NCBI GenBank assembly: GCA_023664085.1
Contig: JAMPGE010000001.1
Coordinates: 17,626 to 81,625 of the forward strand
Direction of reading: 5' to 3'
Length of the DNA stretch: 64,000 nt
Source: Muribaculum sp.
Lineage (GTDB): Bacteria > Bacteroidota > Bacteroidia > Bacteroidales > Muribaculaceae
Of the stretch, positions 32,901 through 35,367 are shown in pieces (positions within the stretch are counted from its first letter, which is position 1; the number at the start of each line of letters is the position of its first letter). The notes under the pieces were generated by a model. The model was not told the DNA's origin. It was given only the letters and a program-made list of their open reading frames with translations, and did not search any database. The position numbers and the translations under genes were made by a program.

Positions 32901-35367
32901 GATTGTCTACGTGCATCCGTCCGCTTGCCGTATATAGGTCGGGGGCTACTGTGCCCTCGATGTCTATCAAAAAGCGGGCATATTCATTGGGTGAATGGGC
33001 ATAGAGTGTATAGGCTCCGTCGGAAAGGCTGGCCTCGAGGTTGATATTTTCGAAAGGTATCTTGTTGTAGTCTACATGGATGGCTTGAAGGTCTACATAT
33101 GTGGCGGCTCCGGGTGTGGCGGGATTGAAACCGGCTCCTTTGGCATGAAGGGTAGCCGTGACACTTCCCACTCCAAGCTCCGGCACGAATCGCCCTACGT
33201 TGAGTCCCCTCACGTCCACATCGGCAAGATATGTCTCTGCCGTCAGCGACACGTTCCCCTTTGCCGCAAGATCGCCTGCCGGACTCAGCAATTTCATATC
33301 GGCAGTATATGTCTGCGCCTTCGCTGTCGCTGTACCGCTCAGTTTGAAGGGTGGAAGTTCAAAGCCCAGGGGTCCGGCAATCTTCTCTATGGGAGAAGGA
33401 TTCTTCACTTCTCCTTCGAGCGATACCAATGCATCAAGTTTCTTGATGTTGAGCGGGTTGCGTGCATAACCTTTGGCCCGCAGGCTGAACAGTCCCGCCA
33501 TGGATGCATCCAGTCGGTCGATGATCACTGATGATAAGGTGCCATGTGTGGATAGAATGGCATTCAAGGGATTCTGCTTCCCTAAATATTTGGTATATGT
33601 CTGTAGTGTCGGCATAAAGGCCACCACATCGGGTATTCCGATGGATACGTTGCCCTTCACGTCTACCGCTGCTTCCGGCTTAAGCTCCATCAACGCGAAG
33701 GGAATATCTGCCGTTACGTCAGCCCTGCTGTAGGGGGTGCGCACGCGCAAGTCCGTCAGACGCATCCCAAGGCTGTCCAGACTGAAGGTGCCGCTGCCTT
33801 CCGTGATCTGGAGTCCGCAGCGTTCTTTGGCCCGAAGTGAAGTGATGGGAAGTATCACGGTGGCGCTCTCATTGTAGAAGTCCTTCATGCTCAGATCCAC
33901 GTCGCTTACCTCTACGTAGTTGGCATCGAAACCGGGCATTGGCCGTGCGCCTTTTATGCCGTATAGTCCGCTGAAGTCATTCAAAGCTATTTCCTTCGCC
34001 TTTATCACCATCGGAGCCGATGGAGGCGTGATGGTATCGACGGGGGCCGGATGTGTCCTCACATACTCCGGTGTCGGTGCGAGATACTTAAACGTGCCGT
34101 GGGCCAATGACAGTCTGTCAGCTGTTATATTGTTGGTGCCCAAATCTATCACCGCGTTCTTCAAATTCAAATCCCGCCCGCTCACTCGAAGTGTGTCAAT
34201 GGTGGGAAGCATCGACATTGCAAAGGTGATGTTCTCAAGCTGCAGGTCGTTGGCCTGTATCAGGAATGGAGTGGTGGGTTGCACGGAATCGGGCGGAGTA
34301 GGCTTCTTTTTCCATACGTTCATGTAGAGGGAGATGTCTCCGTCCTTGAGTGTCGCCTTGTTGAGCAATATCTTGCTTTGTGATATGTTGGCGCTGCTGC
34401 GGGAGTCTACGTCGAGTAGCCCGGCTCTGATTTTCATGATCATGGAGGAGTCGGCCGATACCATGTTGTAATACCCCTGACGAAGCTGCAGCCGCTTTAT
34501 CTGCACGTCAAGATCAAACAGCGGCAAAAGCTTTACATCCGCTATGACCTGACGGGCACTCATCAGCGTGTCGCCGTTGGATTGCACGGCGCTCACGCCA
34601 TCCAGACTGACATCGAGCGGAAATTTCAATCGGAAGAGGTCTATCTTCACGTCCATTCCCGTCTTGTCCTTGACTACATCGCAGGCCACATTCTTCAACA
34701 GTGTCTGCACCGGGGGGATGTACACAAGTATAGGCACTGTCAGCACCACTATCACTATCCACATCACCACTTTTAGAGGAATGCGGATCCATGCCGACAT
34801 TCTATGTCTTCTCTTATTTTTTTCCTCAGGATTTTCTTCGGTGGCAGTCTCGGAAGTAGAGTCCTCCGCGTTTTGCCCGGTTTCGGCCTCTGATGCCTCT
34901 GATGTTTCTCCCGGGCGTCCGCTCTGCAGGACCATCCACATCGCGGCAAACAGAAAACATCCGATTCCATCGGCCACCATGTCTGCCGTCTCAAGCGACC
35001 TGCCCAATCCCATAGCCCGCTGCAAAAACTCTATACCGATTCCAAACAGTGCGCAACCGGCGGCCGTAAGCATTGCTCCAAACCATGTGGCGGACCTCCA
35101 TGCTCCGGCCCGCGACCAGTCCAGCAGGCAGAATCCGGTGAGCAACCCGAACATTAACCCATGTATCAGTTTGTCGGCCCCGGCAAAGAGTTCTATTTCG
35201 TTATCTCCCACCGGATGCGGCGCAAGCGTGAGCCAGAGTATAAACAGCGTCATCATTACTGACATCAGCCAGTTTGGCAATCTGTCTATCAGATTCTTCA
35301 CCCGCTGTCTTCTTCCTCCCGATCCACCGATAGGTTTGCCGTTATGTTGTCCGTGTTTTTCCGTCAT
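29953..35367 (-). CDS. TamB translocation/assembly module protein with N-terminal VanZ-like domain
   Basis: YIPPVQT TamB N-terminus and DUF490-type C-terminus (YSYQLSK.LFNNR, EGEVSEMGAG); residues ~30-148 have the VanZ pattern DKLIH..E.LQ..GRS...D..AD. Confidence 0.85.
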   Translation of the reverse strand: MTEKHGQHNGKPIGGSGGRRQRVKNLIDRLPNWLMSVMMTLFILWLTLAPHPVGDNEIELFAGADKLIHGLMFGLLTGFCLLDWSRAGAWRSATWFGAMLTAAGCALFGIGIEFLQRAMGLGRSLETADMVADGIGCFLFAAMWMVLQSGRPGETSEASEAETGQNAEDSTSETATEENPEEKNKRRHRMSAWIRIPLKVVMWIVIVVLTVPILVYIPPVQTLLKNVACDVVKDKTGMDVKIDLFRLKFPLDVSLDGVSAVQSNGDTLMSARQVIADVKLLPLFDLDVQIKRLQLRQGYYNMVSADSSMIMKIRAGLLDVDSRSSANISQSKILLNKATLKDGDISLYMNVWKKKPTPPDSVQPTTPFLIQANDLQLENITFAMSMLPTIDTLRVSGRDLNLKNAVIDLGTNNITADRLSLAHGTFKYLAPTPEYVRTHPAPVDTITPPSAPMVIKAKEIALNDFSGLYGIKGARPMPGFDANYVEVSDVDLSMKDFYNESATVILPITSLRAKERCGLQITEGSGTFSLDSLGMRLTDLRVRTPYSRADVTADIPFALMELKPEAAVDVKGNVSIGIPDVVAFMPTLQTYTKYLGKQNPLNAILSTHGTLSSVIIDRLDASMAGLFSLRAKGYARNPLNIKKLDALVSLEGEVKNPSPIEKIAGPLGFELPPFKLSGTATAKAQTYTADMKLLSPAGDLAAKGNVSLTAETYLADVDVRGLNVGRFVPELGVGSVTATLHAKGAGFNPATPGAATYVDLQAIHVDYNKIPFENINLEASLSDGAYTLYAHSPNEYARFLIDIEGTVAPDLYTASGRMHVDNLDLQAIGLSKDVNNGSLDLTIDGEASPDRWLYNATLDIASLQWDLPGQYIHLPEGIHACINAQANNVECEVEAQRTSLKFESETGLKRLIDSMMAASAEVTEQIKKRELITDAIQRKLPPFRLQMAASGKGLASQFLTSAGMSIDTVYATLVNDSLLRGDIGVINLNTGSLELDTITLNLNQRGSLLDYKAHLGNRPGTLDEFNKVDLNGYLGSNRMSAYLRQWNLQGEMGYRIGLTAALSNEDKVSVHFTPLKATIAYLPWTLNDDNYIDLDLHTKELEANLYGKSKESSILIKTEDNPEGGNDLHLNLSNIHIQDFLQMSITAPPLSATVDSDIRLHYTGKILEGNGTLDISNFIYDKTYVGNIGLNLKAGMDPTGDSGVQVGMDVDGSKDAMVLRALLTNSTEAGLEPKDISLVLNQLPMRVANAFLGATVAKLDGTLNGEMDLTGGFTKPILNGNLHFDKGKVFIPYIGSTLTLDSVPVTVANNVVDFDRFDVWGANRNPLTLDGTVDATDFSNIALGLTLTGSNVQLINNDKRAKSELYGKLFVDMNTSVKGPLSHFDIRANLGILGTSDVYYTIPTSTAMALEENDQDVVQFVNLSDTTAVATADSIPRMMNMRINAALNINPGTQATVFLSSNGTDKVQVTPSGTLNFFMNYMGDMRLTGQIYTGTGFARYSIPVIGEKMFEFNPQSNILWNGDVMNPTLSVEATDDVKANVVQSGGNTNLVNFLVTLKATGTLSQPNLLFDLSTEDDMTIQNQLQAMSADQRQQQAMNLLLTGQYSGGGFKTDSGPIVGSAYSFLTSQLNSWLAKNVRGIDLSFGVDQYDRTRDGQSSTTTSYSYQLSKSLFNNRFKINVGGNYSTDASADENLEQNLISDVSFEYMLKQTQTMTMLVKLFRHNDYESILEGEVSEMGAGFVYKRRLQSMRGLFRFGSKKKTKDNPSEADTGEGGRRVATKEKETGINDGDTTGRAATQKGADE

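Follow-up and report, generated by a model that had tools for sequence, protein, structure and literature searches.

We analysed a 64,000-nucleotide stretch of DNA (hereafter the window) from a metagenome-assembled genome (MAG) of Muribaculum sp. (GenBank assembly GCA_023664085.1, contig JAMPGE010000001.1, positions 17,626 to 81,625), and within it a gene that joins a VanZ-like membrane domain to a TamB protein. The gene occupies 29953-35367 on the minus strand. It is a single open reading frame (ORF) of 1804 codons that runs from an ATG at 35367 to the stop at 29953 with no internal stop codons. The 1804-amino-acid (aa) product has a Pfam match to TamB, a weak match to DUF748 at the beginning of the TamB part, and a weak match to VanZ. 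An earlier reading of the DNA (the original prediction) had drawn attention to 34800-35367, which corresponds to residues 1-189, that is, the VanZ domain and most of the linker behind it. It had described one 1804-aa frame with a VanZ domain, an acidic linker and a normal TamB start, and we found all of these in place. The strings GADKLIHGLMF and IEFLQRAMGLGRSLETADMVADGIG lie at residues 63-137, the acidic stretch ETSEASEAETGQNAEDSTSETATEE at residues 154-178, and PILVYIPPVQT at residues 212-222.

The fused protein begins with a K/R-rich, predicted cytoplasmic tail (residues 1-20; 35308-35367, minus strand, as for all features of this gene), and the basic run reaches approximately residue 32. 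The VanZ domain, with four membrane helices, follows (residues 21-148; 34924-35307). Next is an acidic, low-complexity linker (residues 149-192; 34792-34923), predicted to be cytoplasmic, with the basic sequence KNKRRHR at its end. The TamB membrane anchor (residues 194-216; 34720-34788) consists of 23 hydrophobic residues behind a basic patch, aligns with the N-termini of unfused TamB proteins, and is followed by a conserved YIPPVQT. The C-terminal DUF490 domain (residues 1322-1723; 30199-31404) matches PF04357 with 139.8 bits and an E-value of 1.9e-40, passing the cut-off. Without the VanZ part, the TamB portion is approximately 1620 aa.

We found that the N-terminal domain fits the VanZ-2 (Lipocone) family. 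The PF04892 score of the window domain was 23.4 bits in the whole protein (residues 60-147) and 28.4 bits for the domain alone (cut-off 30.1), and NCBIfam vanZ_1 scored 20.1 on the isolated part (cut-off 20). All of the aligned relatives tested (12/12) matched PF04892 at E <= 0.01, the best at 4.3e-10. A hidden Markov model (HMM) built from the domain alignment matched residues 21-148. An AlphaFold2 model of the 132-aa domain, made from 84 sequences, had a predicted local distance difference test score of 95.2 and a predicted template modelling score of 0.88. The model contains the four-helix membrane core of VanZ-2/Lipocone proteins, with helices at 16-30, 46-69, 77-100 and 109-131 (domain numbering), plus a short N-terminal helix. 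Foldseek comparison of the model with the PDB gave no match at E <= 0.001, and the best match with VIA-align (wide), 9ygy_N, had a Z score of 8.6, within the range for unrelated helical bundles. The fold searches gave no trustworthy match and so provide structural support neither for nor against a relationship to solved Lipocone members (PTDSS1, TelC, Wnt and SAA).

The conserved residues of the domain agree with those of the published family. VanZ-2 proteins have a KxxH (RKxxH) motif in helix 2 and a DxxxD motif in helix 4 (Burroughs, Nicastro and Aravind, eLife 2025, PMC12419801). The window protein has D65-K66-L-I-H69 in helix 2 and D129-M-V-A-D133 in helix 4; unlike the published motif, the first position is Asp rather than Arg (DKxxH). 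In the 84-sequence alignment, D47, H51, E95, Q98, R105, D111 and G118 (domain numbering) were invariant, the first six being D65, H69, E113, Q116, R123 and D129 of the protein, and K66 was present in at least 90% of the sequences. The conserved motifs are thus D65-K66-x-x-H69, E113-x-x-Q116, R123 and D129-x-x-x-D133. D65, H69, E113, Q116, R123, D129 and D133 were invariant in stand-alone forms and in all 17 fused forms (below). VanZ-2/Lipocone proteins are predicted to be enzymes acting on lipid head groups, with the VanZ-2 prediction centred on lipid II-type substrates, and VanZ-2 has been tied to outer-membrane functions in bacteria of the Fibrobacteres-Chlorobi-Bacteroidetes (FCB) group (PMC12419801). 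This prediction supersedes the statement in the original prediction that the function of VanZ is unclear, and catalysis itself is a prediction.

VanZ-2 has been described as nearly universal in Bacteroidetes (PMC12419801). Consistent with this, we found a homolog in 219/251 Bacteroidota genomes, nearly always as a single copy in a frame of 120-200 aa. The fused copy was the sole VanZ domain found in a search of the genome containing the window. Among other Bacteroidota, longer ORFs holding a VanZ-2 homolog occurred at three loci, with lengths of 311 aa (L106:1465-2400, genome G218), 598 aa (L162, G562) and 279 aa (L173, G654); these are other fusions or extensions.

The tamB part of the fused gene is followed by a gene for a TamL2-like Omp85 lipoprotein of 773 aa (27635-29956, minus strand) with POTRA and barrel domains (PF01103, PF07244). 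Its start codon overlaps the tamB stop in an ATGA at 29953-29956. The N-terminus of its product, MKKSRLLAIIGCMAILAVVAAC, contains a lipobox-like VAAC with Cys22 and is a lipoprotein-type signal. The genome also encodes a second TamB, a 1527-aa frame on another contig (C66; PF04357, 203 bits), and the neighbour of this gene is not an Omp85 gene. Five congeners likewise had two size classes of TamB, about 1500-1590 aa and 1637-1674 aa.

These features resemble the arrangement reported for Bacteroidota, in which an essential TamB and TamL are unlinked and an accessory TamB2-TamL2 operon, present in 20/30 species, has no assigned function (Giovannercole et al., J Mol Biol 2025, PMC12045153). As in that operon, a long TamB paralog is followed by an Omp85 lipoprotein gene that starts before the tamB stop, and the genome encodes another TamB that is unlinked. 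Because of the overlap with the Omp85 lipoprotein gene and the second, unlinked TamB, we interpret the fused protein as VanZ-2 linked to a probable TamB2, the TamB2-TamL2 pair being a putative counterpart of Fjoh_1899/Fjoh_1900 of F. johnsoniae. The partner of VanZ is thus apparently the accessory paralog with its TamL2 rather than the essential TamB, and not TamB in general as had been proposed. Unlike in the published operon, for which no inner-membrane partner was reported, a VanZ gene or domain precedes tamB2 here.

We found that the fusion recurs. A large protein collection searched with residues 1-260 yielded 16 further cluster representatives of 1741-1809 aa, covering approximately 92% of the N-terminal part, and a much larger group of 1610-1690-aa TamB proteins from which the VanZ part is missing. 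The 17 fused representatives (the window protein and these 16) were drawn from ENA, NCBI, JGI and Logan assemblies. The domain HMM matched the N-terminus of all 17, and 11/16 of the fused homologs carried a precomputed PF04892 annotation. In the TamB anchor region, P212, Y216, I217, P218, P219, Q221 and T222 were invariant in 17/17 fused forms and K199 was present in 16/17. The linkers ranged from approximately 25 to 95 residues and differed in sequence. In one representative (P0002), a KVESGKLKVESDER-like unit was repeated in tandem approximately three times within the linker (residues about 135-195). At the DNA level, frames of 1768 aa and 1767 aa were open across the join in two other species genomes of the genus (G171, loci L017 and L156; and G163, locus L155, respectively). 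Fused frames were thus seen in DNA for the window and these two genomes, and four singletons (P0010, P0013, P0015 and P0016) are known as proteins. When the large collection was searched for longer proteins with this VanZ domain, candidates were crowded out and the query alone was returned, a result that says nothing on fusions elsewhere.

A false fusion could in principle have been created by an error of assembly or binning, or by a frameshift, in this MAG. There is a single assembly for this genome, and the linker contains a run of seven A residues (coding for EEKNK) at which a length error would shift the frame. However, the two sides of the linker are in the same frame, with no alternative start or stop needed. 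The fusion is also present in 16 other representatives from other assemblies, close relatives share an RPG motif at the junction after helix 4, and the two frames of 1767-1768 aa noted above are open in DNA. We regard an artefact as highly improbable. With 17 representatives from separate assemblies and linkers that vary, the fusion is almost certainly real and operon-derived, and not a chance frame or an assembly error.

The fused forms do not share a single origin. Parsimony on a TamB tree of 154 rows required the fused state to change 6 times, and well-supported branches forced at least 5 of these changes; in an IQ-TREE analysis of a 66-row subset, 7 changes were required and at least 5 were forced. 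An approximately unbiased (AU) test rejected a single clade of the 17 fused proteins (log-likelihood difference 633, p = 8e-88). The fused forms comprise two clades, which differ in their junctions, and four singletons. The clade of the window has 9 fused rows, with TamB divergence up to about 40%. From the forced changes and the AU test, the fused state appears to have been gained or lost several times, and the changes may have gone in either direction.

We compared the window with related loci. A homolog of the domain was present in 170/201 genomes of the genus and, among the matches listed, three lay in open frames longer than 1700 aa. We fetched 80 loci from species genomes, all Muribaculaceae-type MAGs and many labelled Sangeribacter; 79 were informative and one had too little flank. 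One of the 79 was fused, 52 had vanZ, tamB and the Omp85 gene in that order on the same strand, and 26 had no tamB within the flank. The stand-alone VanZ-2 protein in such loci is approximately 138 aa, with four membrane helices and both ends predicted to be cytoplasmic. At the loci with adjacent, separate genes, the vanZ stop and the tamB start overlapped by 1, 4, 8, 14, 20 or 23 nucleotides or were separated by 3-205 nucleotides, and small insertions or deletions could therefore fuse the genes.

The linker itself retains traces of both genes. The RPG motif after helix 4 is kept inside the linkers of the window's clade, close relatives included, and in the closest split relative of that clade (L039) VanZ ends four residues past this motif. 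Unfused TamB2 proteins begin with similar acidic tails. Together, these observations indicate that the linker combines the former C-terminal tail of VanZ with the tail that opens an unfused TamB2. Judged from these comparisons, the fusion almost certainly derives from a Muribaculaceae vanZ-tamB2-tamL2 operon with translational coupling. Loss of the stop codon would have joined the C-terminus of VanZ to the cytoplasmic acidic tail ahead of the TamB2 anchor.

Two side observations concern this set of loci. Where vanZ lies apart from tamB (e.g., L006:1912-3231), rpsO-vanZ is kept in 16/26 and a different gene is next; in five such genomes (G023, G014, G020, G013 and G011), TamB2 is on another contig. 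This suggests that tamB2-tamL2 was relocated, not lost. In addition, closely related MAGs (loci L014-L093; proteins P0008 and P0014) are publicly labelled Muribaculaceae, Sangeribacter, Porphyromonadaceae, Bacteroides sp., Prevotella sp. or Clostridium sp., and the public labels of this MAG group are unreliable.

The linkage extends to other genera of the family. A stand-alone gene for the domain was found in 32/33 sampled Muribaculaceae genera. In 8/31 other Muribaculaceae genera (one locus each), vanZ was directly before a tamB whose product was 29-35% identical to the query, and in a ninth genus tamB started approximately 1.9 kb downstream of vanZ. The Rosetta-stone argument of the original prediction is therefore upheld, with vanZ and tamB coupled neighbours in the 52/79 informative related loci and in these 8/31 genera.

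The predicted topology would place the two parts side by side. Among 121 stand-alone proteins, the mean numbers of lysine plus arginine residues were 3.2 at the N-terminus, 2.9 in the loop between helices 2 and 3, and 2.8 at the C-terminus, with few acidic residues in these parts, and the remaining two loops were net acidic. By the positive-inside rule, these counts indicate that both ends of the VanZ domain are cytoplasmic (N-in, C-in). The polar cluster (D65, K66, H69, E113, Q116, R123, D129 and D133) is predicted to lie at the periplasmic ends of helices 2, 3 and 4. A cytoplasmic linker and basic patch, followed by a TamB anchor that crosses outward, make the fusion topologically sound. The VanZ polar site would thus lie on the same periplasmic face (outer leaflet) of the inner membrane as the beginning of the TamB groove, beside the groove entrance. 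In current models, TamB takes up lipids through its N-terminal end, at the inner membrane (PMC13119328).

Based on the fusion, the operon linkage and the predicted shared face, we think it somewhat probable that VanZ-2 and TamB2 are functional partners in this family. That VanZ-2 processes or selects a lipid carried by TamB2 to TamL2 is a more tentative suggestion. In such a scheme, VanZ-2 would be a Lipocone-type head-group transferase or phosphoesterase that produces, trims or selects the lipid taken up by the TamB2 bridge; TamB2 would deliver this lipid to the outer-membrane TamL2 barrel; and the flexible cytoplasmic linker would keep the two parts close together and in 1:1 stoichiometry without fixing their geometry. 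Taken as a whole, an operon-derived fusion with VanZ-2 and TamB2 working together at the inner membrane is our best explanation, and we put its chances at about even. The proposal that VanZ is the inner-membrane lipid-handling partner of TamB is in this way partly supported, by linkage and predicted topology, and is limited to the TamB2 of Muribaculaceae.

Several observations weigh against this explanation. The long disordered linker leaves the geometry unconstrained. Overlapping genes fuse easily, and the recurrence could in part reflect mutational ease. In one fused clade (clade B: P0011, P0012, P0014 and P0017; L155:3004-3381), Lys66 is replaced by Leu or Ile (GADLLAH, GGDILAH). Many genomes keep the genes apart, with TamB2 still present: 26/79 of the related loci and 22/31 of the other Muribaculaceae genera. 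Outside the family, no tamB adjoined vanZ and no fusion was found at 29 loci from other Bacteroidales families, and there was neither adjacency nor fusion of vanZ and tamB at 20 loci from other Bacteroidota orders and classes, where the ORFs downstream were closed and of 180-706 aa. Several of the other-Bacteroidales loci have a different context, with an ORF of approximately 126 aa upstream and one of approximately 225 aa downstream of vanZ, which were gcvH and TonB_C in the two loci tested. The order gcvH-vanZ-TonB_C is a published FCB operon (PMC12419801). In addition, VanZ-2 was present in 219/251 genomes versus 20/30 species for TamB2/TamL2, which indicates that VanZ-2 does not depend on TamB2 generally. 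The synteny that the original prediction expected across Bacteroidota is thus conserved within part of Muribaculaceae and absent from the 49 loci outside the family, and its extension to VanZ domains and TamB bridges at large does not hold. We consider it unlikely that VanZ-2 is the cargo-defining inner-membrane partner of TamB2-TamL2 throughout Bacteroidota, unlinked genes included, with the head group made or trimmed on the periplasmic leaflet and the lipid handed to TamB2 for export to the outer membrane.

The change at Lys66 may indicate an altered or weakened active site in clade B. The other polar residues stay invariant in this clade. Lys66 loss might also indicate that the VanZ domain is a non-catalytic module for TamB2: an extra membrane anchor, a helical bundle that thins the membrane locally or acts like a scramblase, or a regulator of the bridge that senses lipids, VPS13A and XKR1 being the analogous case. 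A helical-bundle membrane domain does adjoin the predicted groove entrance, and there is a eukaryotic precedent, as VPS13A pairs with a helical-bundle scramblase (PMC13119328). The likeness is one of arrangement only, with a helical-bundle membrane protein placed where lipids enter a bridge-like transfer protein. Unlike in that case, VanZ is a predicted enzyme and not a scramblase, there is no homology, and the pairing here comes from gene fusion and synteny rather than structure. Moreover, TamB2 has its own anchor, and the invariance of D65, H69, E113, Q116, R123, D129 and D133 suggests a polar active site, not a passive anchor. We think that a non-catalytic role is improbable.

A neutral fusion of neighbours would account for much of the distribution. 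According to this explanation, co-transcribed envelope genes were fused by small insertions or deletions at an overlapping stop and start, the product was tolerated because of its topology, and VanZ-2 keeps an unrelated job, for example on undecaprenyl-phosphate-linked precursors of peptidoglycan or polysaccharide. The overlaps of 1-23 nucleotides ease fusion by mutation, and the fused, split and unlinked states are scattered across the tree. The unlinked vanZ in 26/79 loci and in most other genera, the different vanZ context in other Bacteroidota, and a published VanZ-2 prediction that centres on lipid II-type substrates (PMC12419801) are also as expected. However, the operon is kept at TamB identities as low as 29-35%, and fused forms persist across whole clades, as in the 9 rows of the window's clade. 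The putative catalytic residues are invariant in the fused state, and fused membrane proteins must share location and copy number, a constraint that proteins with unrelated functions seldom tolerate. We therefore judge neutral fusion possible, but rather unlikely.

The combination of VanZ-2 and TamB2 differs from known systems. VanZ-2 proteins elsewhere have the same core and motifs, are present at approximately one copy per genome and, in other Bacteroidales, lie in the gcvH-vanZ-TonB_C neighbourhood; unlike these, the domain here is fused to or in an operon with TamB2. We looked for the gcvH-vanZ context in the genome containing the window and found its sole gcvH within a gcvT-gcvH-gcvP cluster with no vanZ (L160; G000 contig C7:9482-12838). 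E. coli TamA-TamB is similar in having an inner-membrane-anchored TamB with a C-terminal DUF490, an operon with an Omp85 barrel, and a proposed transfer of lipid from the inner to the outer membrane (PMC13119328). In contrast to E. coli, tamB here is before the barrel gene, the barrel is a lipoprotein, and there is an extra four-helix membrane domain at the N-terminus. YfiM-DUF2279 also links a Lipocone-family gene to a gene for a TamB-like beta-taco protein and to an outer-membrane barrel gene (supplementary files 35 and 36, PMC12419801). However, YfiM-DUF2279 is a different Lipocone family, predicted to be in the outer membrane and fused to barrels, and is not an inner-membrane VanZ at the N-terminus of TamB.

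We found no description of a VanZ-TamB link in the literature. The sole relevant paper that names both VanZ and TamB is PMC12419801, and no such association was found in its text and searchable supplements. Both families were already known; what is new is the architecture and the gene linkage. To our knowledge, VanZ has been without a biochemical role for 30 years. It has just one recent functional prediction (PMC12419801). How lipids are chosen for and loaded into bridges of the AsmA/TamB type at the inner membrane is an open question, and current models assume spontaneous entry (PMC13119328). A coupled and repeatedly fused vanZ-tamB2-tamL2 unit offers a genetically testable hypothesis that ties VanZ, TamB2/TamL2 and bridge loading together in abundant gut commensals. 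Its reach is limited, as the linkage was found only in Muribaculaceae and concerns an accessory paralog. If the partnership did hold across Bacteroidota, it would give VanZ-2 and TamB2/TamL2 their first function and would provide the first example in bacteria of an enzyme that is coupled to a bridge-like lipid transporter at its entry.

Elsewhere in the window, a 225-aa ORF (38329-39006, plus strand) between a pullulanase-like gene and a uracil-DNA glycosylase gene had no Pfam match at E <= 0.001. Upstream of the fused gene is rpsO, encoding ribosomal protein S15 (35651-35926, minus strand; PF00312, E = 2.1e-30). It is followed by a strong terminator-like hairpin (35584-35607, minus strand) with a ten-pair stem, 8 of the pairs G-C, and a T run. 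Approximately 120 nucleotides 5' of the start codon of the fused gene is a promoter-like box, TAAATTTG (35484-35491, minus strand), read from the sequence. It matches the Bacteroidetes -7 promoter consensus, TAnnTTTG. Given the hairpin after rpsO and the promoter-like box before vanZ, we rejected an rpsO-vanZ operon; the fused gene is apparently transcribed from a promoter of its own, in a unit separate from rpsO. Among the related loci, rpsO was directly upstream of vanZ in 38/80.

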